Shown here: one piece after another, positions 30,170-60,295 of the stretch
Layout of the letters: every line of letters begins with the position of its first letter
Numbering within the stretch: the first letter of the stretch is position 1
The notes under the pieces: model-generated
The model's input: the letters and a program-made list of their open reading frames with translations, nothing else
Database searches by the model: none
Told to the model about the DNA's origin: nothing
Source of the DNA: a virus
Virus record (IMG/VR): IMGVR_UViG_3300045988_059906
Reading direction: 5' to 3' (one strand)
DNA: 64,000 bases
Program-made: the position numbers and the translations under genes

Positions 30170-30649
30170 TCAGCCAAATATACAAATCATTGAAGATATA
30201 AAGAATACAGCTCCTCCTACTACACTTGTCCAACCTCCAGCATCTTCGTCATTCTTAGATAGCTTTCCTCTACCAGTTAGTAGCATAAACAAGGATATTC
30301 CTAATAATATGATACCTATTACAACACCTGCTATCTCTTTGTAAAGTAATTTCCATACTACGATAGTTATTGCTGTTTGTCCCAAATTAGAGTCTGCTAT
30401 TCTGATGGCGGAATCTTCAACTGCTTTAAGAGTTTCATTAACAGCCACGCCTATTTCCTTACCAAGGTTAGCATACTCAGAAACTTCCTTGATTTCACCC
30501 TTTATAGCTTTCTCTGTTGTTATCTTCTCAATTTGAGTTCTAGTATCACTAGGCAACTTATCATAGTCTTCTTGTGATATAGTTATCTGAGAAAAAGCTG
30601 CTACGCTCATCCAGAGCATAGCAAGCATAATTACAAGGAACTTTTTCAT
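30170..30649 (-). CDS. secreted/membrane protein
   Basis: N-terminal signal peptide and a C-terminal transmembrane helix. Confidence 0.4.
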   Translation of the reverse strand: MKKFLVIMLAMLWMSVAAFSQITISQEDYDKLPSDTRTQIEKITTEKAIKGEIKEVSEYANLGKEIGVAVNETLKAVEDSAIRIADSNLGQTAITIVVWKLLYKEIAGVVIGIILLGISLFMLLTGRGKLSKNDEDAGGWTSVVGGAVFFISSMICIFG

Positions 30650-31209
30650 TAGTCAAGCCATTCAAATTCTTCACCCTTGAAGTGTCTGGCAAAACAAGCT
30701 TCGAATACGAGTTTGCCAAACTGAGTTGATACATATTTGGCAATCTCCTCAGATTTGCACGCAAGCAACCCGACAGTGGAAGTGGCAAGGCTGACGCCAT
30801 AGTGAGAATAGAAAGAGCCGAGACCCGCACCGCCGCCATTATACGCGAGGCCGCCCACCAACGCGAATTTCTCGCCCTGATAACGGAAGTGTCCAATGAC
30901 CTCTGCATCTTTCGGTACTGATTTCATTCTAAAGAACCGAACCCAAGGATACCATACAGTTCCAGTTAATAGATTAAACTTATGTCCTTCGTTTAAGGCA
31001 TCGAGAATGACGTGCAATTTGCGCAAAGCATCAACAGAGAAATTTGCAGGAACATTACCATAGACATCTCTACTCATGATTTTACAAGCATCTTCGTAAG
31101 TCTGTACCCTTGCAGTAATGTCTTCAGACACAATTTCTACTTTTCCAGTCTCTGCATTGTAAACTGGTTTGTAACCATCAGGACATTCGATTTCAATTGT
31201 CTTTTTCAT
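30649..31209 (-). CDS. DGR target protein 2 (small C-type lectin-like variable protein)
   Basis: Contains VR2. The residues LVGGLAYNGGGAGLGSFYSHYGVSLATSTVG parallel the C-terminus of the tail-protein target, and the segment is a GC-rich patch in an AT-rich genome. Confidence 0.6.
   Translation of the reverse strand: MKKTIEIECPDGYKPVYNAETGKVEIVSEDITARVQTYEDACKIMSRDVYGNVPANFSVDALRKLHVILDALNEGHKFNLLTGTVWYPWVRFFRMKSVPKDAEVIGHFRYQGEKFALVGGLAYNGGGAGLGSFYSHYGVSLATSTVGLLACKSEEIAKYVSTQFGKLVFEACFARHFKGEEFEWLD
30766..30861 (-). repeat. DGR variable repeat VR2
   Basis: The 96-nt minus-strand sequence aligns with the template repeat (58787-58882) without gaps, and every interior mismatch falls where the template has adenine. 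Confidence 0.7.
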
Positions 31210-31421
31210 TCGTTGTAATTTTTAATAAAACACCAATAGGTAATTATGTAAATTATAGATATTACACAAAACCAAAATAATTTTCTATCTTTCATAATAT
31301 AATTAATAAGAGTTCCGATTCTTCACTTATTCAGACTTTCCTAAGACTCTACACTATGTCTTGTTATGAGATAACACTGTACATCTGCCAATTTGTTGAT
31401 CGTTCTGGGAATTATACTATG

Positions 31422-31495
31422 GGTGTTATAGCGGATTCGAACCGCTGACCTCTACAGCCACAATGTAGCGTTCTGCCAACTGAACTAATAACACC
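31422..31495 (-). tRNA. tRNA-His (GTG) with G-1, copy 2
   Basis: Acceptor GTGTTAT/ATAACAC plus a 5' G opposite C73, anticodon stem CTACA/TGTAG, loop TTGTGGC. Confidence 0.7.
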
Positions 31496-31501
31496 ATCAA
31501 A

Positions 31502-31966
31502 TTATTCGAATAGCGGCAGCAACTTCTTTCCTAGTATCTTCACCGCTTTCTGTACATCAGCTACAGTTCTAAAATAAACAACACCTGGATATTTTACGTT
31601 TTGATGCATGACGACGTACACTCCTTTTATATCAGTTTCCGTCTTTCCAGATAGAGAAGAACCTTTTCCAAGAAAATAGCCAGTATTACCTTCTGTTTTG
31701 ATCCATCCTTTATTTAGATAGTTAGCAACTATTTGTAAACTAGCTAGAGAACTGAGTTGTTCTGTCATGCTTGGAGGACATACTAATGTATTCCAAAAAC
31801 CATAATCTTCTTCAGACTCTACTATCTCTTTAAAGGAAGGAATTAGCATTTCCTCACTAAATGCAGTAAGAGCTAATTTCTTCAAGTCTTCATTACCGCT
31901 TTCATACCATTCGCGTGCCTGCTCTAAAGTTACCTCAAGATAGGCTTTTGTCTTAATTCTATTCAT
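31502..31966 (-). CDS. hypothetical protein
   Basis: 154-aa ORF. Confidence 0.35.
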   Translation of the reverse strand: MNRIKTKAYLEVTLEQAREWYESGNEDLKKLALTAFSEEMLIPSFKEIVESEEDYGFWNTLVCPPSMTEQLSSLASLQIVANYLNKGWIKTEGNTGYFLGKGSSLSGKTETDIKGVYVVMHQNVKYPGVVYFRTVADVQKAVKILGKKLLPLFE

Positions 31967-32214
31967 TTTTGTTTATTAGTTTTTAATGGACACCAATCCG
32001 GAATTAATACCCTTTCGTAAGGTCTTAACATTCCTTCAATTAGTTTATTCTCAGACTCCTTACAGAGCGCTTTCTCGTCGTCATCATTGAACCAGTCATT
32101 AGGATCTGGGTCAGGAACAATTAAGCAGTGCGGACATTCTCTACACTGCTTAATTTCTTTTTGAAATACTACACTAGTACCAGATTTCTGGTAAGTATCC
32201 TTCTCCGTACTCAT
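31963..32214 (-). CDS. hypothetical protein
   Basis: 83-aa ORF with cysteine pairs. Confidence 0.3.
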   Translation of the reverse strand: MSTEKDTYQKSGTSVVFQKEIKQCRECPHCLIVPDPDPNDWFNDDDEKALCKESENKLIEGMLRPYERVLIPDWCPLKTNKQK

Positions 32215-32454
32215 AATTTGTCATTTTGTAATTTCTTTAAATTCGTTTATAACTGTTTTTATAAATGGTTTAATATCAAATAATAGTATTACAATAACAA
32301 ATATAGTATTTATTACTGGTAATGCCATTATTACGAGTCTTCTAACTGTAACAGATCGTTCATTTACTGCCATATAAAGGCTAACTATGTACATGCTTAT
32401 TATGTATATAAATGCTGAATATACAAATATCATCATAATATATTGAAATTAGTG

Positions 32455-32538
32455 TGGGATTGGGAGGACTCGAACCTCCAGTCTCAAAAGAGAGCAGATT
32501 TACAGTCTGCGCGGCTACCAATTACCGGTTACAATCCC
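32455..32538 (-). tRNA. tRNA-Tyr (GTA), type II, copy 2
   Basis: Acceptor GGGATTG/CAATCCC, anticodon stem GCAGA/TCTGC, loop CTGTAAA. Confidence 0.7.
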
Positions 32539-32751
32539 GAATCGACCTAGTAGAGAACCCTGGTTTCCTCATTTAAATATGACTAACCTATATGCAGTGG
32601 GTATACATATTTCTAAAATTCATATCCTAGGTCTCGCTAATAGAGTTTTATTCATAGACAGATTTATAATAATCTATCCAATAGTCTGCTTCCATATCTT
32701 CGAAGATTTCTTTAAGTTCTTCATCAGATAATCCTTCGTATTTGTCTTCCA

Positions 32752-33123
32752 TTATATCTTTCTCCTATTAAATAGTCTAAAATATTCGTCAGAATATACG
32801 CTGCATAAGTCCTTATACTTTTTTGGCATAGGATAATCAAAGTCATCAAATGCAGATTCTTTAATAAATCCATCATGTAGAGCCATATTTGCTGTGGTAA
32901 CAGCAATATTACAATTACGCTCCTTTCCCCAGTCAACAATGTTACTCATAACACTATTAAAGTATTCTGTATCATTATCTACTTGGAGATAGATTTCCAC
33001 TCTGCAAATTGCAGGATTTTTGAATCCTTGTCTACCTTGTCTAAGAGTTATTTTAGATACGAAATTCAAGTCTAGCAAATCTGCTATTCTATCCTTAGCT
33101 ACAATTCTAGAAATTCTTATCAT
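32752..33123 (-). CDS. hypothetical protein
   Basis: 123-aa ORF. Confidence 0.35.
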   Translation of the reverse strand: MIRISRIVAKDRIADLLDLNFVSKITLRQGRQGFKNPAICRVEIYLQVDNDTEYFNSVMSNIVDWGKERNCNIAVTTANMALHDGFIKESAFDDFDYPMPKKYKDLCSVYSDEYFRLFNRRKI

Positions 33124-33150
33124 CTTTTGGTAAGTTATTTTACATAATTG

Positions 33151-33234
33151 TGGGATAGGTAGGATTCGAACCTACTAAGCCTAAAGGCAACGGATTTACA
33201 GTCCGTCCCAACTCTCCATCGTTGGCGCTATCCC
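33151..33234 (-). tRNA. tRNA-Tyr (GTA), type II, copy 3
   Basis: Acceptor GGGATAG/CTATCCC, anticodon stem ACGGA/TCCGT, loop CTGTAAA, long variable arm. Confidence 0.6.
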
Positions 33235-33443
33235 ATAAAGCAATTAACAGATTTGTTCTAATTAACATAGCTACTACAATTCTTCCTCTTGGCACCCCAA
33301 GTCCTCTAGTAGCTAATAGCCGCACTAGTGCGTGGTAACAATTTTAAGGGAACTCACCTCTGTTAATTGGAGTAATCAGGGATTCATCTACGTAGGCACC
33401 CAATAGACATTATCTATTCTACTAGTGAATGGTGATTACTTCG

Positions 33444-33516
33444 TCTGGATAGTGTGGCTCGAACACACGACCTCTGCATCCCAAATGCAGCGTTCTACCT
33501 ACTGAACTATATCCAG
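33444..33516 (-). tRNA. tRNA-Pro (TGG), copy 2
   Basis: Acceptor CTGGATA/TATCCAG, anticodon stem CTGCA/TGCAG, loop TTTGGGA, T arm GTGTG-TTCGAGC-CACAC. Confidence 0.7.
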
Positions 33517-33584
33517 GTGTAAGTATGTGTTTCACAACAAATACTCACTGCGTAAGAAAAAGAAAAATTCAAGAAAATTGCCTG

Positions 33585-33658
33585 TGACTCCGCTGGGATT
33601 CGAACCCAGGACCCCCAAATTAAAAGTTTGGTGCTCTAACCAACTGAGCTACGGAGTC
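33585..33658 (-). tRNA. tRNA-Lys (TTT), copy 2
   Basis: Acceptor GACTCCG/CGGAGTC, anticodon stem CCAAA/TTTGG, loop CTTTTAA. Confidence 0.7.
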
Positions 33659-33673
33659 ATTTTAATGATAAAG

Positions 33674-33747
33674 TATCCCGTGAAGGATTCGAACCTTCGA
33701 CCCACAGCTTAGAAGGCTGTTGCTCTATCCAACTGAGCTAACGGGAC
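33674..33747 (-). tRNA. tRNA-Arg (TCT), copy 2
   Basis: Acceptor GTCCCGT/ACGGGAT, anticodon stem ACAGC/GCTGT, loop CTTCTAA. Confidence 0.7.
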
Positions 33748-33799
33748 ATCGTGTTCGCTATTATATACAGCGAACTACGTTCTTCTTAGTTAATAATTG

Positions 33800-34759
33800 T
33801 TAAATCTTCTCTTCGGAAATAAGCGCATTACCGCACGTTATTCTGTCAGCATCTTCTTCTTTAGAAGGAACAAATACGATAACATCCCAACCTTCTTCAA
33901 GTAAAGGCTGTTCGAATTGACGATAAACATTATAATCAGAGTAGCCAGTTACTTCAAAACCATTCTCAACTGCGGATGCAGTTTCATGAATAGGGGTTAT
34001 TTTCACAATAAACTTCTCTTTATCGAAAAGTCTAGATAACTCCTTTGCATCCAGAATAGTCTGTGCAGTAACTGGGAAATTCAACGTATACTTTCTACCT
34101 TTCGGCATAGGTAAACGACTAGCCATTTCAGAAATAGTAGCTAATGAATGACTTTTGTTGTCAAATAGCTCTCTTCTCTGTTCGTCATTAGTAGAATTTA
34201 TTGAGAATTGAAGACCTGCCTCACCTCCATAGAAGTCATTCTTGATTCCACACCAAGTTTGTATGAAGTTCTCTAGTTTTCTATTAGCTCTAGGAAGCAT
34301 AGTAGAAACTACTGGATGGACAGTCTTAGCTATCAATCCACAACTCTTTACTACTTCTTTTAGAACAATCCCAAATGCTAGTACATTATCATTCCAAGTT
34401 GGCTCTCCCATTCTTGCGAAATGCACATTGAATCTGTCAGTATTCCTAACAGTCTCATTCTTGATAATGTTTCTTATTTGCCATTCCATCTCTTCAATAG
34501 AAACGTTTCCATAGAATCCAAATTTCGGAACATCACAGAACTTGCATTTCATTGGGCATCCTTTCTGGGTGGAAATGGTTGCAACCCACTTTTTACTAAG
34601 GTCAACTTCAGTATTGGCTACTCCATTAATCTCCTTAGTTAATCCTAGGAAATTAGCTTTGATATTGTTCTCCTTTCCATAGTCTCCTACGGTTAGAAAT
34701 TCAAGTTTATGTTCTGTATCAACATAAATCTTTCCTGTGTGAGTAAGTATTGTCTTCAT
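33800..34759 (-). CDS. radical SAM domain protein
   Basis: CPMKCKFC is a CxxxCxxC cluster motif, followed by a GEP-containing segment. Confidence 0.5.
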   Translation of the reverse strand: MKTILTHTGKIYVDTEHKLEFLTVGDYGKENNIKANFLGLTKEINGVANTEVDLSKKWVATISTQKGCPMKCKFCDVPKFGFYGNVSIEEMEWQIRNIIKNETVRNTDRFNVHFARMGEPTWNDNVLAFGIVLKEVVKSCGLIAKTVHPVVSTMLPRANRKLENFIQTWCGIKNDFYGGEAGLQFSINSTNDEQRRELFDNKSHSLATISEMASRLPMPKGRKYTLNFPVTAQTILDAKELSRLFDKEKFIVKITPIHETASAVENGFEVTGYSDYNVYRQFEQPLLEEGWDVIVFVPSKEEDADRITCGNALISEEKI

Positions 34760-35711: not shown

Positions 35712-35725
35712 TTTCTTTTTCTTTT

Positions 35726-35786: not shown

Positions 35787-36272
35787 TTATCTCCAGCAAT
35801 GCTTTTCAAGCATCTTTTGAAAGATAGGAATATCAGAAACAGATGCGAAAAGTAACATACAAGACCTTACTTTAATTACATCGTTTCCAAATATCTCGTA
35901 AACTGATTTCTCATTATTATAGACCGCTTCTGTGATTTCAACTAACCTATCTCTCAATATAGGATGGTTGATATATTCAATAGCTTCATCACGTCCACTT
36001 ATTCCATAATAACGAGACTTTTCACTCGTGCCAAGCCTCCTCATTTGAGGAAAGATAAACCAAATCCAATGTGTTTTCTTCTTCCCTGCTTTGACTTCTT
36101 CCAAGGCAGTTTGATAAGTATTCCACTTATCTTGTGCTTCAATGAATCTGTCAAGTCCAAGATACATTTTGCGAGCAAGTTGTCTTGTTTCTTCTAGAGG
36201 AAGTCCACTCTGATCTAATTGAGAGTGAGGCATAGCCAGTTGGCACCACTCTTTGAATGTAAATTTATTCAT
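35787..36272 (-). CDS. hypothetical protein (HWIWFIFPQ motif)
   Basis: 161-aa ORF. Its stop codon abuts the hammerhead ribozyme. Confidence 0.4.
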   Translation of the reverse strand: MNKFTFKEWCQLAMPHSQLDQSGLPLEETRQLARKMYLGLDRFIEAQDKWNTYQTALEEVKAGKKKTHWIWFIFPQMRRLGTSEKSRYYGISGRDEAIEYINHPILRDRLVEITEAVYNNEKSVYEIFGNDVIKVRSCMLLFASVSDIPIFQKMLEKHCWR

Positions 36273-37455
36273 CTTTATTTAAATGTTTATAACCTAGCAT
36301 TCCCATCATGGTAAGAGATAAGAATGGATTATATAGCTTTTTGGGACTAACATCATACATTCCAGATCCTCCAAATACAGATTTTACAGGAATATCTGGG
36401 CCTACTATAGTAAATACTCCTTTTATAGGGTCAGAATTAAGAACCTATGTTGCATAATCGTCTGTAAGAACACCTTCAGACATATTTACAGAACGTGCTC
36501 TATCCTTGCTTAAATAAGCACCTATTGGACCTCCTGCCCAATTATTAGAAGATGGATTAGCTTTCTGCCTTTTTATAAGCCTAATCTAGTCATCCCAGTT
36601 GGGATTAATTATAGAAGGTTTAACTGGTAGTCCCCAGATTGCAAAGTCTCCGTAAGCTTTTGCTCCTCTTGGATTAGAACTGAACCATTTCTCATAATTC
36701 TGGTTATTTTTTCCGGTTTCAAAACTATGTTTATCCTTAATTCCAGACCTCATTGTGATACCATTATATAAAAGATTCTTACCTTGAGGAGAGTTTGCCT
36801 AGATATAATACATAGTTTCTATGTTGCTTAGATTCTTCCTTCCATTAGCAGTATATCTTCCATTAGGCTATCTTATCAGCTTACCAGACTTAATTAGCTC
36901 ATTATAAGTTTGAACAAACTAGGGAAAAGCTTTTTTAGTGAATAAGTCTATTTCCTCCTGTGACATCTTATGTCCTGAAGCTAGTGATTGCCAATTTTCT
37001 AAAGAATAATCAAGTCCCGTTCGAAGTCTAAACTTTTCTGCTTCTTCGTTATGCTCTTTGATTACTTTCTTTTGTTGATTAGATCTGGCTTTAGCCTTAG
37101 ACTTATTTTCCTCAATTCTTTTTTCTACGGCTTGAGTCTGTTTGTAAGATGATAAGCTTTGAAGTTTTCCTTCTTTATTCCTAATGTATTCAACTCCCTA
37201 TGGGTCAAATATTCTTCCCTTCGTTTCTCGCCAACCTTTCTTTATTAAAACGTTTGAAAGTTTCTTTATTTGCCCTCCTGTGATTCCTGGAATAATTAAG
37301 CCTGTAGCTGCTAAACCCATACTTATATAATCTTTATCTTTTGCGGCATGAATAAAATCATGTGCGTCCTATGCTTCTCCAACTCCAGGAATAAATCCTG
37401 CTAGGAAGTCTAGTATAGGATTTTTGTCTCTAAATTCTTTTACTTTGTCTTCCAT
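36265..37455 (-). CDS. hypothetical protein encoded with in-frame TAG codons (TAG-containing island in the standard-code module)
   Basis: Read by eye, the minus-strand frame stays open from ATG (37455) to TAA (36267) over about 397 codons with at least 8 TAG and no TAA or TGA. The six-frame track shows no long ORF here for that reason. Confidence 0.5.
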
Positions 37456-37522
37456 AAATATTTAATTTTTATTTATAGAATACTACACATTTGTTTGCTA
37501 AATAGCAAGTATTTTACACTAC

Positions 37523-37544: not shown

Positions 37545-37559
37545 CGCTCTCCGCCTAAA

Positions 37560-38472: not shown

Positions 38473-38540
38473 TTTTTGTTTTGATTAGTTAATACAACCC
38501 AAGTAAGATGTAAAGTCCTACTTGACGCACTAGACCTAAT

Positions 38541-38820: not shown

Positions 38821-39861
38821 AAAAAATGAACACTATCAAAAGACCTTCCTGTGCCACTCTCCTTTGAATTGTTTCACAACAATTACATAGTCTCTGGGCG
38901 TACTCATTATAGTCTCCAATAATACACAACAATAGTTCCCTACTCTGGACTTGAACCAGAATCTTCTCCTTTAGAGAGAGATATACTGACTTGTACTAGT
39001 AGGGAAATACTCCACTGCCTAAGCTCCCTATGGGAGCTGTAGGCTATCTAGAATAAGATGGAGAGTTATTTAGATAGTTTCCTATGCTATCTACGTTACT
39101 AACGTTCACTAAGAATATAGGTAGCTAATCCATATTCTTGCGACTGAGTTCGAGGTAGGAAATATACCCTTATGAGGTATCCTCTTATCAGCTAACCTTA
39201 TTTTAATCTAGCGGCTTATACTAGGCAACTTCTAAATAAATAAAATGCATAACTATAAGTGATATGCTTTGGTCGACTGGCATATCAGCAGTACTTCATA
39301 ATATTGCTATAAGTGACCAACCCTATAGCTCAATCCTCTTGTAATAGTGTTTAAGTTTGCGAATATACACATTACAATCGTAGCAGTTATTTTCGGATAT
39401 TGGGCTATCTGCGTAACCCCGCTTTTTGTTGCCTTTTTATGGGCTAATGTTAGAGTAAATAATCATTGTAGTATGAGTTATAAAACTCGTCCTACTGGCG
39501 ATTTTTTGAAAACTGGAAAAAGTCGGAAAATTGGCTGCCGACGTTCTGGACAATTATTCTCCTTACTCTCCATATTTTCACGTGAAACATACACGATTTT
39601 ACTAGAAATGATAGTCTTTCCTATCAGCCAGACATAAAACTAAAACTACTACAAAAGTTAACTCGGTTTTTGATTTTTTTTTGTTTTGTTGTTGATTTCT
39701 CCGTTGACCAATGTTCCAATGATGGAGTTCATATGGGCATTTTATTTTAACTCATAATACCTTAGAGCTGCACGTTTGACTTATTTTAAATCTCGTTGTG
39801 CGCTGAGATTGACTCTAAGATTCGGTCACACTCTCACTTATTTATACACGAGAGAGTCGTG

Positions 39862-41411: not shown

Positions 41412-41483
41412 TGCCCTATGGTGTAATGGTCAGCACAGATGACTCTAAATCATTTAGTCTGGGTTCGAATCCTAGTAGGGCAA
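41412..41483 (+). tRNA. amber suppressor tRNA (anticodon CTA), tRNA-Gln-derived
   Basis: TGCCCTA-TG-GTGT-AATGGTCA-GCAC-A-GATGA-CTCTAAA-TCATT-TAGT-CTGGG-TTCGAAT-CCTAG-TAGGGCA-A. U1:A72, and the D arm is near-identical to both tRNA-Gln(UUG) genes. The anticodon CTA sits at 41445-41447. Confidence 0.8.
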
Positions 41484-41500
41484 CGCCAAAATTAATAGTT

Positions 41501-46253: not shown

Positions 46254-46289
46254 AAAGATTAAAGATGTTAATGTTAATGATTGATGAGT

Positions 46290-46850: not shown

Positions 46851-46852
46851 TT

Positions 46853-49213
46853 ATGCCTAGAAAGAAAAAAATATTACCTGAAGAAATCTAGAATATAGTA
46901 GATTAGGTAAGAGAGAAAGAACAAAAAGAGGATGCCAAAGAAGCTAGAGAACTAGTATAGAAGATAAGAGAGGAAAGGGGCAAAAATGCTGATTATTGGG
47001 ATGTAAAGAGAGGAGATAAGATAGAGGTATTTGACCCTACTTTATCTTATGAAATAACTGGATATAGACCAATAGATGAAACACACGGTCTTGACTTCGA
47101 CCCAGATTGGTTTACTGAGACCAGAGAAGTGTATAGAAAAACTGGAAAGTATTGTCCATATCTAAAAGATAGTAAGAGATATAATGAGTTTTGGAAGGAA
47201 TAGTATAGAAGATGTAAATACGGAATGACTGTTAATGGTTATACAATTACTGGAGATAACTATTTCTTCCTAAACTTCTACTAGCTTCCTATTATTGATG
47301 ATAACAAGGCATCTGGAGAAGGAACAAGTAGTGACTTTCCTATATTTTTCGCATCTCATTATATGTTCTTTCATTATCTATAGATGGCTAGAGTTCTGCA
47401 TAAACACGCAGCTCTTATGAAAGCTCGTTCTATTGGATTCTCTGAAATAAATGCATCCTTATCTGCAAGAATGTATTCAGTAATCAGAAGAAGCAGAGTA
47501 ATGATTACTTGTTTTAATGATACCTTCCTTAAAGGTACTTTTAGTAAGTTTGATAATGCTTTAACATTCTTGAATACTTGTACAGGAGGAGGATTCTTCA
47601 AACTACGTTTGATTGACCAAGACTTAAGAAAGAAGTCTGGTAAACAGATTAAGGTAAACGGACAGTTTGAGGATGTTGGATTTAAATCAGAAGTAGTTGG
47701 AATAAATGGAGCTAAGGCATCTAATATTCGTGGAGACCGTGTTGACCTATTAATATATGATGAAGCGGGGTCTTGGCCCGGACTAGATACTGCTGTAGTG
47801 CAGGGACAAGAGCTTTGTGAAGTTCAGGGTAAACCTCGTGGAACAATGTTATTTGGAGGTACTGGTGGTGATATGGGTGCTCCATTAGCAGGTCTTAAGA
47901 AGATATATTACAATCCAAAAGCTTACAAAGTTCTTCCATTTAGACATAATTATACACAGGATGGGACTACTATTGAAAGTGGGTTCTTCATTCCATATTT
48001 TGTCTAGTCTCTAAATTCAGAATACATGGACCATAGAGGTGTATGTAATACAGTAGAATATAAAAAGTATCTATAGGAAGAGCGTGACAATTTATTAGCA
48101 GTTCCAGACGACTATCTAAAGAAGTGTGCCGAACGATGTTGGAATGCAGAAGAAGCATTTAATCTTGAAGGTGTTAACAAGTTCAACAAGATTCTTATTG
48201 CGGACCAGTTAGCTAATATAAGACTTAAGAAAATAGGACCAAGACCAGAATCTGGATACATAGACTATTTCTATAAAAATAATAAACACACCTAGGATAA
48301 TATAGATGGTTTTAAATGGATTCCTAATATTAACGGAAAAGTAAAAATACTTGAACATCCTGTATGGTCTGATTTGTATAAAGAGTAGATGGATAAACTT
48401 AGATAGGAAGCCGAGGAAAGGGGAGAAGAATTTGAATCTCCAGCGTACAAAGAAATGCATGATTTATATGTTGCAGGAATAGACGGTATTGATATAGGAG
48501 CTAGTCAAACTTCAAAAGAAACAAGAGATCCTTCTGATTTCTGTATAACTATAAAAAGAAGAGCATTTGGTCTAAACGAACCGTAGTATGTTGCTATGTA
48601 TAAAGACAGACCTAATGACATTAGAGAAGCCTATAAAATAGCTATGTGTTTAGCTAGATACTATAATTGTAGAATAAACATAGAAGCTACCCGTGTAGGT
48701 ATGATTACCTGGGCTAGAGAAAAGGGTTGTTTAAACTACTTTATGAAAAGACCTAGAGCTACTCTAACAGACGTCAAGAATGGAACTACTAAATAGTACG
48801 GAACACCCGCTACCAAAACTATTATAGAACAACATACTGATTTGACAGCAGCCTTTATTGAGGATTTCTGTCATACTATATGGTTTGAAGAAATGTTAGA
48901 CCAATTTACTGGATATAATGATGAGAATAAAGGTAAATTCGATATTGTAGCAGCTGTGGGAATGACAGAATTGGCAGACTAGGAATTGTCAGGAAGATAG
49001 CCAGTGCTTGTTGAAAAAGAAGTTGAACAATTCCAAGATTATGGTTATTATTACGACGAGAGAGGAATCAAAAGATTTGGGGTTATACCAACTTCTAAGA
49101 CTTTTGAAACTAACATACAAAAAAATGAATACGATGACCCATACAGAATTGAAACAAGTGATCCTAGGTTATATGAGAGACTTGTACAAAATGGAATACG
49201 TAGGTGGGCTTGA
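46853..49213 (+). CDS. terminase large subunit (TerL), with in-frame TAG
   Basis: About 787 codons in frame 2, with multiple in-frame TAG and a TGA stop. Contains the Walker B-like LLIYDEAGS and the nuclease-domain YVAGIDGIDIG. Confidence 0.65.
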
Positions 49214-49371
49214 AATTCAGAACCTAGATCCAGTTGGTTATAAGGTATCGTTTAACTTTGATAGGTCAGAGATGCCTTTAGTCATTATAGCTGATTTACC
49301 TGATGAAGAATTTCTCCCATTTATAAAGGAAGAATTAAGAAGTAGGAAGTTACAAAGAGTTAAATACTATA

Positions 49372-51582
49372 ATGCAACTAAACTTCCTCCAGAACAGCAT
49401 AATTTATGTTATGAAAGAAAAAGAACTGATAGACAAGACGAACGAGGCTATTGCGGAGCTTGTATATGATAAGTACGAATTATAGAAAGCCTATAATTAC
49501 TATAACGGAAAGAGAGACCCAGAATAGTTTCGTTACCTGGAAGAAAACTTTGGAATAGGTAGTCCTACTTCTGTAGAATTTACACCATTACTAAAAAAGC
49601 ACGTAGATGCTCTAGTAGGGGAATATCTAGGAACCCCTATCCTTCCGAAGATTTCTTGTAAGGATTCAGATACCATTAGTAATATCACCAGAGAAAAATA
49701 GTTAGAAATAACTAAAGGAATAGTTAAATTTCTTAGAGACCATTTAAGTAATTCTATTCTGAAATTTATCGACGGAAAAGATATTACAGATAAAGCCGTG
49801 AAGACTTAGTTAGATAAAATTATTCAAGACATTGATTAGTCTTTTATTTCTCAATATGAGATAGCTGCATAGAATATTATTCATTATATCATGCAGTCTA
49901 GAGAAACCGATTTAATAACTAAACTCCGATAGTTACTTACAGATTTATTAATTACTGGCTATACATTTTTCAGAGTAAAATCATCATCTTCTGGAACTAA
50001 CATAGAAATAGAAGTTCTGAATCCTTTAAATACTTTCGTAGATAGGAATCCAGAATCTCCATATGTTAGAAATTCGTATAGAGTTGTGGTTAGAAAATGG
50101 ATGAGTAAAAGCTAGATATTAGCTAAATACGGAAAAGAAATCTCTAGAGAAGATTTGAAAAGACTAAAAGATGAATGGAGAGCTGATGATTCAGCTGCAG
50201 TTTATAGAAGAGTTTATGGTGACACTTGTACTATAGTAAATGAAGACTAGAATCATGAAACTATTCCTGGATACCCAGATAATGAATATAGTGCTCATAG
50301 ATTTTAGTTAATTCCTGTTTATGATGTAGAGTGGATAGAAACTGATGACGATTTTGTAATGTAGAGATACAATACCATTAGAATTGGAGAAGAAATATAT
50401 ATTCTGAGAGGTCTAGACAAGACTGTTATGAGGTCGAAAGATAATCCTAATTTCTGCTCTTTGTCTGTAAATGGAGTATATTTCTTAAATCGCTCTCAAC
50501 AACCGTACTCTCTGATATTAAAGTGTGCACATCTACAGGATAGATATGACTTGTTAAATTATTATAGGGATAACCTGATAGCTAACAGCGGTACTGCTGG
50601 AGTAATCATGGATATGTCATTGCTTCCTACTAACCTAGGCGTAAAATGGCCAGAAAGAGTGTAGAAATGGTTAGCATACAAGAAGGGTGGTATCATGTGG
50701 ATTGATTCTACTTAGGAAGGGAGAAATGACGGAGCGCAAGCACCTAACTAGATATACAATGGATTTGATGATACCTTAAAAGCTTAGGCTGTATAGGCTA
50801 TTGAATTAGCAATTCAATCAGTAGAACAAACTACATCATCTATAACTGGAGTATTTAGAGAAAGATTAAATGGAATAGAAACTCACGATGCTGTAACTAA
50901 TATTAAGCAAGGTGTTACTAACTCTTACATAGTAACCAAGCATTATTTCTAGTAGATGGACCTAATCACTTGTGAGATATTATTGGATAGTCTAAACTAG
51001 GCTAAAATAACATATAAGAAAGGATTAACTGGAACTATTATACTTGGGGATAAATATCAACAGATATTCACCGCACTTCCTGAGTATTTTACTGTTACTG
51101 ACTACGATATTCATATTACTGCTAGTTCAGAAGTGATGGAAGATCTATAGACTATAAAAGCAATCATTCCAGAGTTCGTAAAAAGTCAACAGATGGACCC
51201 AGATATTATTTTTGAGGCTCTTACATCTAAGAGTCTGACAGACCTTAAATATAAGGTTAAGAAAGCTGTTCAAGTTCGCAAAGAGGAAAATAATCAGCTT
51301 CAGCAACTACAAGAAAAATTAGAAGAAACTTCTCAATAGGCTCAGTAGTTATAGCAAGAATTATAGAAAGCTCAGCAAAAGATTGAAAGCTTAGATGAAT
51401 AGAGACTAGGATTAGAATAGTAGAAGATGCAGTTAGAATATAAAGTTAACTGGCTTAAAGCTCAGTCTGATTTTACATATAAAGATAGACAAATGGATAT
51501 AGAAGAAAAGAGAACTGAAATAGAGTTAGCTTAGCTTCATGATGGAAATCCATATAATGACAAAATAAGACAAATACATTAA
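49372..51582 (+). CDS. putative portal protein, with in-frame TAG
   Basis: Frame 1 is open from ATG (49372 or 49411) to TAA (51580), with many TAG. It lies directly downstream of TerL. Boundaries are approximate. Confidence 0.4.
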
Positions 51583-51583
51583 T

Positions 51584-52318
51584 ATGGCAACTGGAACAAT
51601 TGTATATAATAAGGATTAGCAATAGATTTATCCTATTTCAGATGGTTCAGTAATTATTAGTAATGCTTCTGGTTCCAAATCAAATGTGGAAGAAGATTTA
51701 AAGAAACTATTTAAATAGGTGTCAGATCTTTCTGGTTCTAGTGAAGCGGTAAATAATATTATTATTAAGATTCATTACTTACCTGCTGATACTGCTGAAG
51801 AATCTGAGATAAAATTATCTACTAAATAGTGGACTGATACTTTTGAACTTCCAACTGAAGAGAATCCATACATCTGGAAAAGAACTAAATTTACTTTCTA
51901 GGGAGCTGACGAATCTCAGGGAACTACTATTTATGAGATTGTGGCAAGCGATGTTTCTACTATTATCTAGAATATATACACTAGAACTGAGGGAATAACT
52001 CCAGTTATTGAGTATAAGCAGAAAACAGATGAGGATGGAAATCCTCTATATGTAGATTCAGAAGGACATGAAACAACGACTGTTACTCCAACTAAGGCAT
52101 ATGACTATAATTATTATTGGAATGGGAAACCAGCTGGTAAATTAAATAGTCTACCACCGACTCCTGAAGGTTAGTCATATACATGGACAGACTATCCTCA
52201 AGATATTAGTTTATCATTTAGTTCAGTTTTTATGTCTAGACGTATACGACAAGAAGGTAAGTGGAAACCATTTTCTACTCCTGCTCAATATGGTCAATGG
52301 CCTACTACTGAGTCTTAA
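51584..52318 (+). CDS. structural protein, with in-frame TAG
   Basis: Frame 2 from ATG (51584) to TAA (52316), with several TAG. Confidence 0.35.
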
Positions 52319-52511
52319 TTATTATAATATGGAATTTAGTATTGATATACATACCCAGATTAACGGGGAAATAACTATTGAAGACTTTTCAAAGGAATAT
52401 GGATAGTATATTGATGAAGATTTAGAGGTAGTAACTTCCTATGATTCTTATAAGTATAGTGAAAGTGCTACCCTAAATACTATCATAAAAGTTAGTATAG
52501 GAGATGCTACT

Positions 52512-53057
52512 TTGATAGACGTACTTCTCAATGACCATACAGAGGATTTAGACTCTTGTACATTTAAGGTGAAAGAAGATGGATATTATGTAGTAGACCA
52601 CATAATTCTTCCTAATATGAAATGGTATGAAAATTCATCTGATGAATACAAGGAGTATTATGAAACTATCTATATAACTGATGGAGAGAAACTATATAAA
52701 GAAGTAGATGGAGAGCTAGAGGAATGTACTGTAAAAGAAATCCTTGAGAGAAATATAGAAGGAACTACTATCAAAAAATGTAAGGTAGATGTATTCTTTA
52801 CAGGAAATCTGCAATAGTGTTATATTAACTACTGTAAGAAACTCTTTGACTCTTTATTAAATAAGTGTCTAACTAGAGAACATGATGCAGATATATTTGC
52901 AAGAGATTTTATCTGGATGACACTTAATATTATAGATTATTTAATAGGCTTTAAACAATTCATGGAAGCTGAAAGATTGTTAGCAATGTTCCGCACTTGC
53001 GGTGGATTCTGTGACAATCACCATGAACATAAACGTATAGGTTGTGGATGCTCTTAA
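52512..53057 (+). CDS. zinc-binding protein, 1 in-frame TAG
   Basis: ORF 52512..52817 continues through a TAG to TAA at 53055. C-terminal CGGFCDNHHEHKRIGCGC. Confidence 0.35.
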
Positions 53058-53212
53058 AAGAAAGGCTATTAAAAGGTATGAGGATTTCCTTAAAAGGGTT
53101 AGAAAGGGATATAGACCAGATTATTAGGATATTTTGAATCTAATTTGTTTTATTAACCTACCCATAAAATTAGATAATCACGAATTTATTAAATAGCAAT
53201 TATTGAATCATA

Positions 53213-54802
53213 ATGATACAGCCTATTTACACTTCGGTAAGCAATGCTGATATAAAGCCTTGTGGAAAGAAAGGACATTTAATAAAAAGTGAACCTATAC
53301 CTCTCCTAAGAAACAACTATCTTGGAGAATATAGAACTGAATTAGAAAGAGCTAAGGTTAGAAAGAATCTAGGTATTGCTGATGAGTAGAGTCTTCTTTG
53401 GGGAAATATAGAAGGAACTATAGAAGCCTAGAAAGATTTAGTATAGTACATAGAATAGAAATGGACTTATACTAGTGATGTTGCAGAGAATATCAATACT
53501 GTAAAAGATGCCTTAGATTATGCTTTATTCTTTATAAGTTAGTACGAAGCTAATACAGAAGAAATAGAGGAAATAAAAGTTGATATAAGTAATATCAGAA
53601 CTTCTATTACTGTACTTAAGGAAGAACTTGAAGAAGAAATTGAATCTAACAGAACTGGCATAAACAATCTTTCTGAGAAAATAACCTAGATTAATGAGGC
53701 AATAGAGGATATTAATGAGTCTATCAAAAATATAGATGTTGACAAAAACATCTAGAATTGGATAACTAATAGTCTAAGAAACTCCAAAACCATAGAAATA
53801 AAGGATGATAATACTCTAGAAGTAATTCTATCTTAGTAGGAGGATAATGCAATACATCTGATTCAGTAGGAAATTCCTCCAGTAGAGGAGGAAGGAGAAC
53901 CTTCCACAGTAGTTCTACCTGGAATATATGTAAAAGACCTGGAACCATCTCTAACAGAGGTAAAGGAAGAAGTTAAGGGAGTATAGGAAGCTTAGAAGAA
54001 CACTGATTCTAAAGTAGATTCTAATACTGAGAATATCACAAATATATAGACAAGTTTAGAAACTATAGCTACTTATCAAACTGAACTTCCAGATGATACT
54101 ACTTCTACTGTTATTCAAGGAACTACAGTTGAAAAATTGAAAGGAAAGCCGTTTAATGAGATTATAGACACTCTATTATTTCCTACTGTTGTTAGAGATT
54201 TGGTTTATCCTTAGTTGTATTATAGCTTCACCTCTTAGATTGTGGAGGTAGGATCCGCTTTACTTACCCCTACTTTAACATTTATAAAAAATGATGCTGG
54301 AGAGGAAACTGGTAGAGAAGAAACTATTACCTATAATGATTCTCCTGTAGAATCTGAAACATATGATTCTATCGGTGTTTATGTGCATTCTGGTACCGTA
54401 AATTATGCTGCTGGAGAATATCTTATTAACAACAAGGGAGAGGTTACAGACAAGAGGGTGGAGGCTGGTTCAATATCAACTACAGCATAGGTGACTGCTA
54501 CCTACCCTTGGTATTCTGGTAATACAGATAGTTTAATCAAATAGAGTCTTGTTCCATTTGGACAATCTTCTGGAATTATTACATTTTCATTAAGTGGAAA
54601 GGCTATTATAAAATTACCTGGAAGTAATACTTAGCTAAATTCATTTACAGTAGATGGAGGACTAGGATACCTAAATGTTGATTTAAGTGGCTGGGAAACT
54701 TCTACTGAATAGATAAATGGATTTCCTTATAAAGTATGGACTAAGAAGGATACTTATTCTTCAGCATTGCCTCATCAAATTAACTTTACTTTATCACAAT
54801 AA
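53213..54802 (+). CDS. tail/structural protein, with in-frame TAG
   Basis: Frame 2 from ATG (53213) to TAA (54800, overlapping the next ATG as TAATG), with many TAG. Contains coiled-coil EEIEEIKVD... Confidence 0.4.
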
Positions 54803-57800
54803 TGGCATTTAAATATACAGGTGATGCTACATTAGGCGTTGCTTTAACCGTAGAAACTCCTAAACCTCTTGATAATAGAACAGTAGTCGATAATTTAGAC
54901 GAATTATATTCTATTCCGGAGAAATATGCTTATCAAGGCATGACCGTTTCAAATATAGATAACGGAAATATTTATATGCTAGTAGATAAGTCTAAGATTA
55001 AATACAAAGAAGGTTGGAAAGCTTCTTATGAATCTATTTAGATAATCACCTGTACAGAGGCTGAATATAAGGAATGGTCTGAAAATACCACAGAAGATTT
55101 TAAACCTATAGACGAAAATAAAACATATCTTCATGCAGAAACATATTATTATATATATGAAGACAGCCTAGATGATGATTAGTTTTATTTATCAGCAGAA
55201 TGGGGTAAAAAGATAGAGGAATAGTTGAAATAGAAAGCTCTAAATACTACTGTCGTACAGATTAGAACGGATTTAGACTAGACAATCTCTAACCTTTCCA
55301 AGTATGCTACTCTTGAAGAGTTAACTGAGAATTATGCCCCTAAAACTGATCTAGATTTAGAGGACCCAGAATCCTTGTTATCTAAAGCCTTATCTAACCA
55401 TTATACTAAGGAAGAAACTGATGACATATTTGTTACCAAAGAAAGTCTTAGAGGAGAAGGAATGGAAGGAGATGATTTTGTCTTTGTTACAAAGAAATAG
55501 TATGACGAAGACCAATAGGCTATTCAAGATGAGCTAGATAAGACTTTAAAGGTAGATGGAGATGGTTCCCTAGAAAGTATTACTGTAGGATAGATAAAGT
55601 CTCCAGTAGTAGAAGGGAAGGATTAGCTAGTAGTAGATGTTAAATCTGATGGATTGTTTGTTGGAGAAGACCAATTCGCCATGATGTCAGATGTTCCTAA
55701 TCTGGTTACATTAACTGAAGAGGAATATTTAAAACTGGTAGAAGATGAGGCTATAGAACCTGACACATATTACTATGTGTATGATGTAACAAATGATGCT
55801 AAAGTCTATATTACTAAGGAGTACTTAGATCAAAATTACCATACTACACATCAGTATTAGTCCTGGGTTGCTACTAATTATTACTCAAAGACATAGATTG
55901 ATGAAATTGTTTCTGGTTTATAGAAACTAGGAAGCTACGTTACTACAGAAGATATTAAAGCATACTACACTAGCTCGTAGGTAGATGAAAAGTTTCTTAC
56001 AAAAGAAAATGCTCAATCTACATACGCCACTCAATAGTCATTAACCGACCTTTCCGATTAGATAGCAGAGGAGTATGTGACAAAAGAAAGTTTAAGAGGA
56101 GATTCTCCCGAAACTGGTGATGACGATTTTATATTTGTTACCTAGAAGAAATATTAGGAAGATTAGGATGCCGCTTCTAAGGAATTTAGCACAGAGCTTC
56201 TAAAATCAACCTCTATAGAAACTTCTGATATTACTATTTAGAAAATTGTCGAAAAAGAAGTACAATAGGGAACAACTGGAGAAAGTTCAGAAGATGAAAC
56301 AACTGAACAGACTATTGAAAGTTCTGTTAAACTTACTACAGAAGACAATAGATTATTAGCATCTGGAAAGCAAGTTGCTCTTACAGAAGAGGTTCCTAAA
56401 TTGGTATGTCTTCCACAAACAGATTATGATGACTTAGTTGAAAATAATAAGACAGAGAACGATACGTACTATTGTACTTATGGAGAAAAAGATATATAGG
56501 ATACAGGATATGTCAGAAGTGAATATCTGACAGAACGCTACTATACAAAAGCTGAGGTGGAAGAATTAATAAAGGCTGCTGTAGACGAATTGTAGAAGAA
56601 AATAGATGCAATATAGCCTGGTTCTGGTAACGTACAGGTAGATGGAGAAAATGAACAATTAATATTTTAAATAGTATGGGAACAATTTGGGTTGAAGGGT
56701 AGTTTAAGAACTCAGCAAAACCAGTAAAAGTTGTTGGAGGAAATATAGGAGGATCTGGAATAGACCCAGATACATTAAAGAACTACGCTACCAAGGCTGA
56801 ACTGTAGAAAGCTGTTGAAGACTTAACTGCCTCCATAGAAGGAATAGATCATAATGTAGAAGAAGAAACTTTAATAATACAATAATATGGCAGCTATCAA
56901 ATCTATAAAGGTTGGAGAAACCGTATATGACTTAAAGGCTACCTATGATGGCTCTGGAAATGTTATAGATTAGACATATGCAAAATCTAGTGCCATTCCA
57001 ACTAAAGTGTCTTAGTTATAGAATGATGAAAATTATTTAAAGGAACACTAGGATATAAGTGGTTTAGCTACTAAAACGGAGTTGGAAAGTAAGGTAGATA
57101 AAGAATTAGGAAAAGGACTTTCTGAAGCTAATTACACAGAAACTGAAAAACAGAAACTTAGTGGTATTGCAGATAATGCAAATAATTATGTACACCCAAC
57201 TACTTCTGGAAATAAACACATACCTGCTGGAGGAGCACTTGGATAGATTTTAACCTTTTCTGAAGATGGGACTGCATAGTGGGCAGATACTAGTACTAAG
57301 TTAGAGGAACAATTTAATGCTCTTAATACTGCTTGGGAAGAATTACAAAAAGAACAATAGAGTCTAAGCAAACAAGTCACAGAGTTAAGCAGTAACGTAG
57401 ACTTATACTCTTATGGAGTAGAATGGGATATTACCGTATCTTCTCCTATCCTTACTAGAATAGGAAACCCACTATTACATAAATCCCTCCCTATTTAGTC
57501 CGCTTACAGAGGATGTGTAGCAAATAACGGTGTGGTAAATTACTATTTATATCCGGACGATTGGGCTTACAAAGAAGATGGAAGTACTCCTTCTGTGCTC
57601 GATGGAACTGATGGAACTGTAAGAGTCCACACTCCTAAATTTTATGGTAAATCAGGCTCTAATGGAAATAAAAGATGGGTTAGAATTTCTCTAGTAAAGC
57701 TTGATGATTCATGGGTAGAAATACCAGAACTATTAATTGACGCATATAGAAATACCGTTGATAATACTGTGTCAGCAACCCCTAAAGCTGTGTCTGTGGT

Positions 57801-58707
57801 CAATACTACAGAAGCATTTAGAGGTGGTGGAAATAGAGCACAATTCGATGAGTATCTAACTACTGAACTTGATACCAAAGATGCTTTTAGAAGCGATTTA
57901 GGAAAACCTAGAACTAATGTTTCTAGAGCTAATATGAGAACTTATGCTACAAATGCAGGTTCTGAATTATTATGCTATGAATATTATAAATGGATATTCT
58001 ACTGGAACTATGTAATAGAATATGCTAACTTTAACTCCCAGGCTGCCTATAATGCCGAACTTACTTCTGATGGTTATCGTCAAGGAGGACTTGGTCCTGG
58101 AGTTACAGACTGGAGTAACTCTGCTACAAGTTGGTCTGGATATAATGGAACTTATCCTATTACTCCATGTGGTTATTGTAATGATATTGGTAACTTCACT
58201 GGAATCAAAGATTTAGTTATTCCAGAGTGTACTGCAACAAACGAAACAGATACAGTAGCGACTAAGACATTTAAAGTTCCAAGATGGAGAGGTTTTGATA
58301 ATCCATTTGGAGATATTTGGACAAACCTAGATGGAGTAGTTATTCAAAGAACTGCGGCAAATGAAATCAGTAGTGTGTATACTACCACAAACAAGGAAGA
58401 GTTTACTGACGTAATTGGCAGCAAGACCATAGCAGGATACGAGGTAGCGCAAGATGGATACATTAAAGAGTTTGACTTAGGAGAGACAGCAGAGATTATA
58501 CCATCTTCTTGTACTGGAGCCTCAGCTACAACTTATATATGTGACTACCACTCTTGCAATGCTACCTCTACAGAGCTTCGCACGCTGCTGGTGGGCGGCA
58601 GCGCGGGTTATGGCGGCCATGCGGGTCTCGGCTCTTTCCTTTCTGGCAATGGCGTCGGCAGTGCCACTTCCCATGTCGGGTTTAGGACTCTAAATAGAGT
58701 ATCTTAA
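54802..58707 (+). CDS. DGR target 1: large tail fiber/receptor-binding protein with C-terminal variable region, with in-frame TAG
   Basis: Frame 1 from ATG (54802) through ORF 57532..58707 to a stop after VR1. Many in-frame TAG. The C-terminus ...LLVGGSAGYGGHAGLGSFLSGNGVGSATSHVGFR is encoded by a GC-rich patch. Confidence 0.45.
58585..58683 (+). repeat. DGR variable repeat VR1
   Basis: 99 nt at the 3' end of the target gene. It aligns gap-free with the template repeat, and all of roughly 24 mismatches fall on template adenines. Confidence 0.8.
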
Positions 58708-58724
58708 GATAAAATATAGAAAAT

Positions 58725-58742
58725 CGATTTAGATATAAATCG
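58725..58742 (+). other. hairpin downstream of VR1 (candidate DGR homing-enhancing stem-loop)
   Basis: cgattta-gata-taaatcg is a perfect 7-bp stem about 40 nt after VR1. Confidence 0.35.
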
Positions 58743-58783
58743 TAGGATATTACTTCTAAAAACCGTTGATTGGCAAAAAAGAA

Positions 58784-58882
58784 CTGCTAGTAGGCAGCAA
58801 CGCGAATAATGGCAGCAATGCAGGTCTCAGCTATTTCAATTCTAACAATGACGTCAGCAATGCCAATTCCAATGTCGAGTTA
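58784..58882 (+). repeat. DGR template repeat (TR)
   Basis: AT-rich cognate of VR1 and VR2: ctgctagtaggcagcaacgcgaataatggcagc... It lies between the target gene and the reverse transcriptase. Confidence 0.8.
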
Positions 58883-59020
58883 TTATATATTTAGAACAAT
58901 TTATTTTATTTTTTTAGTTTGCTAAGTAATATCCTTGCCTCTAGGCAAAAGACAACGTAGTGTTAAATGAAGGGTGTTAGTAGGTTAAATCTCGAAAGCT
59001 TCCGATGAAATATATAAAAA

Positions 59021-60295
59021 TTGAAACGTGTAGGATATTTGCACGAACGAGTGTATGATTTGAAAAACATCGAATTAGCTGATGATAAGGCTAGAAGAAA
59101 TAAATCAATTCGATGTGGTATTAAGTAGCATGATAAGAATAGATTAGAAGAAAATAAGGAATTATCAGACAAATTAAAATAGCTAATCTATTAGACTTCT
59201 GAATATAGTACATTTATAATATATGAGCCTAAAGAAAGATTAATCTTTAGACTTCCATATTACCCTGATAGAATCACTCATCATGCTATAATGAATATTA
59301 TGGAACCTATCTGGACCAGTATTTTTATAGATTAGACATATTCCTCTATAAGAAACAGAGGGATTCATAAGGTAGAGTATGATTTATTCAAGGTATTGTA
59401 GAAATACTCAGATGAAACTAAATACTGCCTAAAAATGGATATAAGAAAATTTTATCCATCTATAACACATGACATCCTGTATGAGATGTTGTAGAAGAAA
59501 ATAAAGGATAAGAAACTGTTAAGTCTATTGAAGGAAATAATATATTCAGCCAAAGGAGTTCCTATTGGAAACTATCTATCATAGTTCTTTGCAAATTTAT
59601 ATCTGACATATTTTGACCACTGGATAAAAGAGGAGTTAAAATGTAAGTACTACTTTCGATATGCTGACGATATTGTGATTCTTGGTAATGACAAGAATTA
59701 TTTGAGAAATGTATTAGTATCTATAAAACTGTATTTGAAACAAGTTCTTAATTTAGAATTAAAACCTAACTACTAGATATTTCCAGTAGAAAGTAGAGGA
59801 GTAGATTTTGTAGGTTACAAATTTTATCACACTCACGTTCTATTAAGAAAATCTATAAAAATGAGAATGTTTAGGCTTATAAATCTATATAAGCAAAATA
59901 AGATTGATAAAGAAGAATTGGAAAGAAGAATGAGATCTTATTTCGGCTGGATGAAATTCTGTGATTCTAAGAATTTGTTGAAAAAGATAGAAACTTTGAC
60001 TGGTTTGAAGTTCTCAAATTGGAATGGAAAGGAAGTCAATATATCTAAGTTTTATAATAAGTATATTCATATCATAGAGGTGGTTGATTATCATAGCCAT
60101 TTCAGAGTGCACTTTATGTATAACAACAAACCCTATTATTTTAAAAGCAAGAATAAGAAATTACATTATTCTTTGCTTAGATACAAATTTCCTATAAATT
60201 TTAAAGTAACACCTTATGTTAGAACCGAATAGAATACAAATGAACGTTTGTCCTTAGGTAATTCAAAAACTTGGGAACGGTACTTATTATTATAA
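59021..60295 (+). CDS. DGR reverse transcriptase, with in-frame TAG
   Basis: Frame 2 opens after TAA at 59015 and probably starts at TTG (59021) or GTG (59051). Motifs KMDIRKFYPSI, GVPIGNYLS[TAG]FFANLYL (SQ/QxxANxYL) and YFRYADDIVIL (YADD) are present. The true stop is probably TAA at 60293. Confidence 0.7.

Follow-up and report, generated by a model that had tools for sequence, protein, structure and literature searches.

The locus described here raises the question of whether a single template repeat can diversify two unlike genes that lie 28 kb apart on opposite strands. It is carried by a 64,000-nucleotide stretch of viral DNA (IMG/VR record IMGVR_UViG_3300045988_059906; the whole stretch is called the window below) and has the parts of a diversity-generating retroelement (DGR), namely a template repeat (TR), two variable repeats (VR1 and VR2) and a reverse transcriptase (RT) gene interrupted by TAG codons. 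This arrangement had been proposed in an initial annotation made from the letters alone. Our analysis makes it very likely that the element is an active DGR in which one TR serves both VRs; it resides in a TAG-recoded gut phage of ~186 kb that is probably crAss-like. The features on which the argument turns are as follows.

58784-58881, plus strand: TR, 98 nt (30 of them adenines), located in the non-coding DNA that separates the tail gene from the RT gene
58585-58682, plus strand: VR1, at the 3′ end of the tail-protein gene, 22 nt before its TAA stop
30767-30860, minus strand: VR2, 94 nt equivalent to TR positions 5-98, inside a small gene
56887-58707, plus strand: target gene 1, tail protein of 606 aa with eight in-frame TAG codons (phrog_5302, "tail protein", E 1e-82)
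30649-31209, minus strand: target gene 2, 186-aa protein of an uncharacterised family, without in-frame TAG (phrog_11581, function unknown)
59021-60295, plus strand: reverse transcriptase of the DGR, 424 aa long, beginning at TTG and containing nine in-frame TAG codons

Re-alignment of the three repeats placed them where they had been reported, without gaps. The 98-nt TR core consists of 30 adenines and 68 other bases, and all 22 mismatches between TR and VR1 were found at adenines (15 A>G, 5 A>C and 2 A>T; hypergeometric P = 1.3e-15), with none at the 68 remaining positions. The ungapped alignment with VR2 gave 21 of 21 mismatches at adenines (P = 3e-14), and the only three non-adenine mismatches all lie in the first four TR columns and thus mark the 5′ edge of VR2. 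When substitutions were tabulated by template base, none occurred at a non-adenine TR position within the aligned cores; the annotated restriction of interior mismatches to adenines therefore stands, with the counts of about 24 and about 26 corrected to 22 and 21. Between VR1 and VR2 of the window there are 17 differences, all of them among the 30 adenine positions, which argues for independent homing events. Both VRs are, as had been noted, GC-rich islands in AT-rich DNA (GC of 0.65 for VR1 and 0.61 for VR2, as compared with 0.45 for TR and 0.35 for the window), and the peptide motif said to be common to both is present; the peptide encoded by VR1 is LLVGGSAGYGGHAGLGSFLSGNGVGSATSHVGF. No further copy of TR or VR was found in the window.

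A scan of IMG/VR with the RT recovered 80 loci, approximately 29 of them at 87-98% identity (contigs of 96-270 kb, many of 183-193 kb), and a scan with the VR2 protein recovered 36 loci, mostly on the same contigs as the RT loci. On the contigs checked, the VR2 gene lies ~27-28 kb from the RT gene on the opposite strand, and the layout first described for the window, one template with two VRs on opposite strands ~28 kb apart, is also present in ~30 related phages. The TR is nearly invariant in these phages (7 distinct sequences in 25), and VR1 was distinct in 24 of 24 relatives and VR2 in 26 of 26. Entropy in VR1 was 1.28 bits at TR-adenine columns versus 0.075 at non-adenine columns; for VR2 the corresponding values were 1.26 and 0.054. 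In one contig a T>C change at TR position 8 was also seen in VR1 and VR2 of that genome, and C>T changes at positions 18, 30, 45 and 93, found in three contigs, were likewise copied to the VRs, with VR2 being readable in two of the three. The presence of these non-adenine TR variants in both VRs indicates that template information reaches both targets. Compared between genomes, the sequences display a one-way flow from an invariant TR to hypervariable VRs.

The most economical account of these data would run as follows. The TR would be transcribed together with a structured spacer RNA downstream of it, within which cDNA synthesis would be primed, both by analogy with phage BPP-1. The RT would then copy this RNA to cDNA and misincorporate opposite adenines, as the mismatch pattern and the BPP-1 analogy suggest. 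The cDNA would replace, presumably by homology, the VR at the neighbouring tail gene's 3′ end and, independently, would integrate in place of the VR in the 186-aa gene, which lies on the other strand at a distance of 28 kb, so that two independently randomised binding surfaces with ~11 freely variable codons per VR would result. Because the RT gene contains nine TAG codons, its product would be made only once amber suppression had become available. Both VR genes are directed away from the position near 40 kb where the coding strand switches and GC skew is at its minimum, and in a reconstituted DGR editing was best when the target was co-directional with replication (PMC12875486); an origin near 40 kb, which is speculative, would make both targets co-directional with replication.

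Several observations weigh against an active element with two targets. Its activity is read from differences between genomes and not from within-sample variation, and the non-adenine TR variants could have reached VR2 by gene conversion from VR1. The argument from replication direction has GC skew as its one basis, and in phages skew also tracks transcription. No Avd/HRDC accessory gene was found in the cassette, although not every DGR has one. VR2 is internal to its gene, where 38 codons still follow it, and is thus not at the extreme C-terminus; the predicted fold of its product is neither that of a C-type lectin nor that of an immunoglobulin (Ig) variable protein. At the 3′ ends of the VRs there is no clear pair of initiation-of-mutagenic-homing sites (IMH/IMH*): the homology ends in GTCGGG(T/A)T, and the sole fixed 3′ difference is GTCGAG in TR versus GTCGGG in the VRs. 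Downstream of VR1 lies a further feature.

58687-58700, plus strand: short inverted repeat ACTCT-AAAT-AGAGT, with 5 bp and a 4-nt loop, beginning 4 nt past VR1

The hairpin annotated after VR1 is therefore present as an inverted repeat but loses its significance, since its 5-bp stem is no stabler than shuffled sequence (z = -1.0). Its sequence is kept in relatives, and no conserved counterpart was found downstream of VR2.

One alternative is that VR2 is a relic that was formerly a target, or a passive copy held in a VR1-like state by occasional gene conversion, and that it no longer receives cDNA from the RT. Such a copy might well lie 28 kb off on the other strand, lack an inverted repeat of the VR1 type, be 4 nt shorter at its 5′ end and sit within its gene, as VR2 does. 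However, VR2 is not a copy of VR1, given the 17 adenine positions at which the two differ in the same genome, and it follows the non-adenine variants of TR. The 26 distinct VR2 copies differ almost solely at TR-adenine columns, and the rest of the gene is near-invariant. A relic would be expected to gather non-adenine changes, yet about one of these was seen per VR2 copy against ~21 adenine changes. We therefore regard a passive VR2 as improbable and retain an active DGR with two targets as the better explanation.

A second alternative holds that nine TAG stops have turned the RT gene into a pseudogene and that the TR/VR pattern records past activity only. Its open reading frame (ORF) is indeed fragmented under the standard code, and the question thus becomes one of the genetic code in this part of the genome. 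Plus-strand late genes are broken under the standard code and open when TAG is read through. Seven of them (45669-64000, plus strand) contain TAG at 120 of 4,320 codons, or one per 36 codons, which exceeds the glutamine codons CAA (62) and CAG (25) taken together. In seven minus-strand genes around VR2 (27144-34759), TAG was found at 0 of 1,730 codons. Two of the TAG codons in the RT gene, at residues 185 (IGNYLSq, in the catalytic-region SQ motif) and 249, align with a glutamine that is invariant in 15 of 15 relatives without in-frame TAG. Because these positions match an invariant glutamine, TAG in the late genes is, on alignment and codon usage, read as glutamine. The first ~41 kb (window 1-41500) contains 43 tRNA genes, three of them with a CTA anticodon.

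41412-41484, plus strand: CTA-anticodon suppressor tRNA whose body resembles tRNA-Gln, located where the late-gene block begins
38935-39005, minus strand: CTA-anticodon tRNA, the second of the three suppressor tRNAs
10955-11027, minus strand: CTA-anticodon tRNA, the third

The tRNA at 41412-41484 resembles the tRNA-Gln genes of the window. In addition, more than 25 related genomes retain the RT frame of 418-421 aa, at 87-98% identity, and amber codons in RT genes have been reported from Zeta crAss-like phages (PMC12386605). A broken RT is thus even less probable than a passive VR2, and the annotation of the RT as a TAG-containing gene with TAG translated as glutamine is upheld by the invariant glutamine alignment, the suppressor tRNAs and the 120 late-gene TAG codons. 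Several in-frame TAGs were also observed in three minus-strand ORFs, at 20588-21394 (GIY-YIG), 21837-22628 and 36265-37461.

With TAG read as glutamine, the RT carries the motifs YADD, qFFANLYL and DIRKFYPSI, as annotated, and its TTG start at 59021 aligns with the ATG of relatives. It matched Pfam RVT_1 (2e-18) and phrog_1423 (3.5e-112). Among solved structures its best match was the 328-aa RT 8ub7 (E 1e-45), and retron-type and group II RTs reached 2e-15 or weaker. The database label of 8ub7 is only "Reverse transcriptase"; from its length and its motif IGSLTSQLFAN, which aligned to IGNYLSQFFAN of the window RT, we assume that it is the DGR RT of the Bordetella phage. The window RT bears IGNYLSQ, an instance of the (I/L)GxxxSQ motif in which Q is encoded by TAG, and on these comparisons it is of the DGR type and not a retron or group II RT, in agreement with the initial annotation. 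The converse idea, that the RT comes from a retron, group II intron or defence-type system and the repeats are a duplicated protein motif, can be dismissed with near certainty: NCBIfam group II, retron and Drt models do give matches, but these are sub-threshold and far under the cut-offs (e.g., 112 versus 300 bits), the DGR-type solved RT is ahead by 30 orders of magnitude, the TR is non-coding and adenine-rich with TR-VR differences exclusively at adenines, and no intron RNA domains were found, the Rfam matches being only to RT-17 and RT-18.

Past the RT fold the protein continues for ~85 aa in a C-terminal extension that is conserved within the RT clade. Homology of this extension to a 110-aa ORF of distant DGR loci was considered and rejected, since the likeness was by eye and BLASTP gave no alignment.

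The first target is the tail protein. The initial annotation had given its gene a length of about 1300 aa; the real length is 606 aa with TAG as glutamine, the longer figure being a merger with the upstream ORF at 54784-56670, from which it is separated by in-frame TAA stops. Residues 174-554 are conserved beside the RT in distant DGR loci. The VR1-containing C-terminal domain (265 aa) had no match by sequence in Pfam or the PDB.

The second target, in target gene 2, belongs to a large family. We found 836 homologues, and the family comprises 265 clusters at 50% identity. The 71 closest homologues and the window protein (72 aligned) are 90-94% identical, and the columns without a majority residue in this alignment were 11 VR codons and two near the C-terminus. 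The protein had no match in Pfam or NCBIfam. An AlphaFold2 (AF2) model built from a diverse alignment had a predicted local distance difference test score (pLDDT) of 88.7, replacing an earlier model from a shallow alignment of near-identical sequences (pLDDT 48), and showed no fold match in the PDB. No signal peptide was recognised by eye. The gene sits in a standard-code block of tRNA and auxiliary genes, and its stop overlaps the start of the gene for a signal-peptide/transmembrane protein. Its neighbours are as follows.

30170-30649, minus strand: signal-peptide/transmembrane protein, downstream of target gene 2 on the same strand
29651-29881, minus strand: lipoprotein-like ORF (labelled by eye)
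29136-29654, minus strand: NfeD-like membrane protein (labelled by eye)
27144-29117, minus strand: SPFH/Band 7 flotillin-like protein, 657 aa, downstream of target gene 2
31502-31966, minus strand: target 2 paralogue, upstream, with the N-terminal domain in common and without a VR

The genes at 27144-30649 on the minus strand make up a membrane-scaffold set that is unusual for a phage. The paralogue aligned to target 2 over 80 columns (hhalign probability 83%, E 8.5e-6), and, as it has no VR, the family includes undiversified members. The location of target gene 2 in a standard-code, tRNA-rich block beside membrane-protein genes suggests that its product is probably non-structural. A further step, that it is a non-virion protein and the founding example of a non-lectin DGR scaffold in a widespread phage family of 180-210-aa proteins, is put forward tentatively and is less likely than not. 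Points in its favour are the 265 clusters of the family, its apparent use as a tandem target beside the cassette in other phages, its two remote copies in a sister clade, the membrane, lipoprotein, NfeD-like and SPFH genes next to it, and the lack of TAG codons in target gene 2, which could be translated without amber suppression. If true, one template would co-diversify the adsorption device together with a factor inside the cell or associated with its membrane, and that factor might serve superinfection exclusion or counter-defence.

Remote targets of this kind are also found outside the close relatives. In a sister clade (RT 71% identical) the remote VRs are again in the target 2 small-protein family, and in three of four comparable contigs they are opposite in strand to the TR/VR1 pair. 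The contig IMGVR_UViG_3300045988_106556 (loci L130, L133 and L134) has a tail-gene VR and two remote VRs in paralogous small proteins, which gives three targets for one template. Smaller contigs of the same RT clade (L075, 7190-8069; also L057, L068, L069, L071, L076 and L080) were observed to have two tandem targets of 137-153 aa directly upstream of the TR, with a likeness to the target 2 family by eye (e.g., IKTFEDAC).

In nucleotide searches of GenBank phages only tRNA matches were obtained, and a tblastn search of GenBank phages with the VR2 protein gave no match. Target 2 homologues are present in entries named "CrAss-like virus sp.". Identity of the large terminase subunit (TerL) was 26-29% to annotated Crassvirales and 42-45% to unannotated gut phages. 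The TerL values are compatible with a divergent crAss-like phage but do not assign it to a taxon. Up to ~40 kb the genes of the window are encoded on the minus strand and beyond that point on the plus strand, and the cumulative GC-skew minimum coincides with the switch. Minus-strand auxiliary genes observed in the window (216-1400, 23200-24405 and 33800-34759) include adenylosuccinate synthetase, an AAA ATPase and a weak radical-SAM match.

Two further parts of the cassette flank the RT coding region.

58931-59019, plus strand: structured spacer RNA, made up of a hairpin (UUGCC/GGCAA), a linker rich in A and a second helix
60216-60605, plus strand: 129-aa acidic ORF, overlapping the RT 3′ end and directly downstream of the RT almost clade-wide

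The spacer that separates TR from the RT start is 139 nt long and holds the conserved element at 58931-59019. It matched Rfam RT-17 over its full length at a sub-threshold 29.7 bits (gathering threshold 40.4; E 4e-4) and also matched RT-18; no Rfam match at the gathering threshold was obtained for 16 related loci. Across 16 diverse loci, compensatory changes were found at six of the seven predicted pairs of the second helix (P2), and the first hairpin (P1) occurs in the variants TTGCC/GGCAA, TTACC/GGTAA, TTTCC/GGAAA and TTGGC/GCCAA. Weinberg et al. located the related RT-10 motif between TR and RT in phage BPP-1 and proposed a role for other RT motifs in other DGRs (PMC5737381).

No ORF was found between VR1 and the RT gene. 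The 129-aa ORF was located by tblastn 3′ of the RT in 43 loci (L028-L080 range), and, unlike this ORF, the other genes flanking the RT are not conserved. Its comparison with Pfam and PDB profiles revealed no relative and no Avd similarity. Its product might serve as an accessory factor, or might partner the tail fibre or tail protein. In L030, L043 and L051 it was seen fused to an extra C-terminal domain of ~145 aa. Some distant DGR loci have a conserved ORF of 110-113 aa between VR and TR (L064, 3777-4112; L070, 8630-8971; L074, 545-877); it occupies the usual Avd position, has no Pfam match and lacks the look of a helical bundle.

Each headline feature of the window element has a precedent. 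Wu et al. (2018) described many phage-associated DGRs with a non-adjacent target less than 50 kb from the RT (PMC5758913). A close parallel is Quimbyvirus ("Quimbyviridae", gut Bacteroidetes phages; Benler et al., 2021, PMC8008677), which likewise has one RT and TR with two VRs, one target by the tail-fibre module and the other distal, on the opposite strand and judged non-structural; its activity was also deduced from adenine-specific differences among near-identical genomes. Unlike in the window, both Quimbyvirus targets are C-type lectins and the distal one lies in a defence/counter-defence island, whereas the distal target here is a 186-aa protein without a recognisable fold beside membrane and SPFH/NfeD-like genes. 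The Quimbyvirus RT is split by frameshifts, whereas that of the window is interrupted by sense TAG codons, and the phage itself is of the crAss-like kind, at roughly 186 kb.

For Zeta crAss-like phages, a 2025 report (PMC12386605) gives DGRs in 18 of 43 genomes, with amber codons in seven of the 18 RT genes. These phages share with the window large genomes, tRNA blocks, CTA suppressor tRNAs, the GxxxSQ motif, RT C-termini (variable, to 414 aa), tail-fibre targets and the absence of Avd from most cassettes; C-lectin domains are also reported for their tail fibres. As a difference, section 2.4.3 of that report describes tail-fibre TR-VR pairs only and mentions no distant small-protein target.

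The canonical BPP-1 element resembles that of the window in its adenine mutagenic retrohoming, in a TR by the RT, in a VR at the 3′ end of a tail gene, in a homologous RT (E 1e-45, through 8ub7 taken as the Bordetella phage enzyme) and in a structured RNA between TR and RT (RT-10 there, PMC5737381). BPP-1 possesses Avd, diversifies only one target and shows a defined, GC-rich IMH with a strong stem-loop after it, whereas in the window we found no Avd, two targets, a 5-bp inverted repeat, an RT extension of ~85 aa and, downstream, a conserved but unrelated 129-aa ORF. Tentaclin-bearing phage DGRs with two targets (PMC10743442) also have one TR, two different target proteins and a VR1 that differs from VR2 in each genome; however, their targets are C-lectin and Ig proteins inside the cassette, and the second target of the window is 28 kb off and has no structural assignment.

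Given the precedents of Quimbyvirus and of the amber RT genes in Zeta crAss-like phages, the window element is a DGR of a known kind, and the accepted picture of how DGRs work is unchanged by it. The ~30 related genomes nevertheless offer a clean natural case of one template acting on two unlike genes, on opposite strands and 28 kb apart. They also tie a DGR to stop-codon recoding, in that the mutator needs TAG as glutamine and one target needs no suppression. We did not find the target 2 small-protein family described. This recurrent target family, the 129-aa ORF possibly in the place of Avd, and a rule by which 5′-AG-3′ adenines become G are the leads that the locus provides.

The last of these concerns the sequence context of template adenines. 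TR adenines that precede G were found as G in ~95% of VR copies and almost never as T or C. For the close family the figure was 96% (354 sites), and for 50 TR/VR pairs from 31 other TRs it was 95% (276 sites), counts in which many sites are related by descent so that independent events are overstated. At four-fold synonymous third positions, G was present at 98 of 103 sites in the close family and at 43 of 45 in distant DGRs; the remaining sites were all A, with no T or C. Since the effect is seen at four-fold synonymous positions, amino-acid selection cannot explain it. Adenines in AAY and TAT contexts showed all four bases in the VRs. In BPP-1 the RT is also context-dependent, dC misincorporation being dominant and dG misincorporation nearly absent in NAG contexts, but mean misincorporation is only ~30% per event (PMC12875486). 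The pattern suggests either that context acts near-deterministically on the RTs of this clade or that selection operates at the nucleotide level. If the RT reads AG as GG, this would help explain the GC-rich VRs (15 of the 22 VR1 changes being A>G), and G>A drift in the TR would be masked in the VRs. Such a rule would also limit the diversity that templates of this type can generate.

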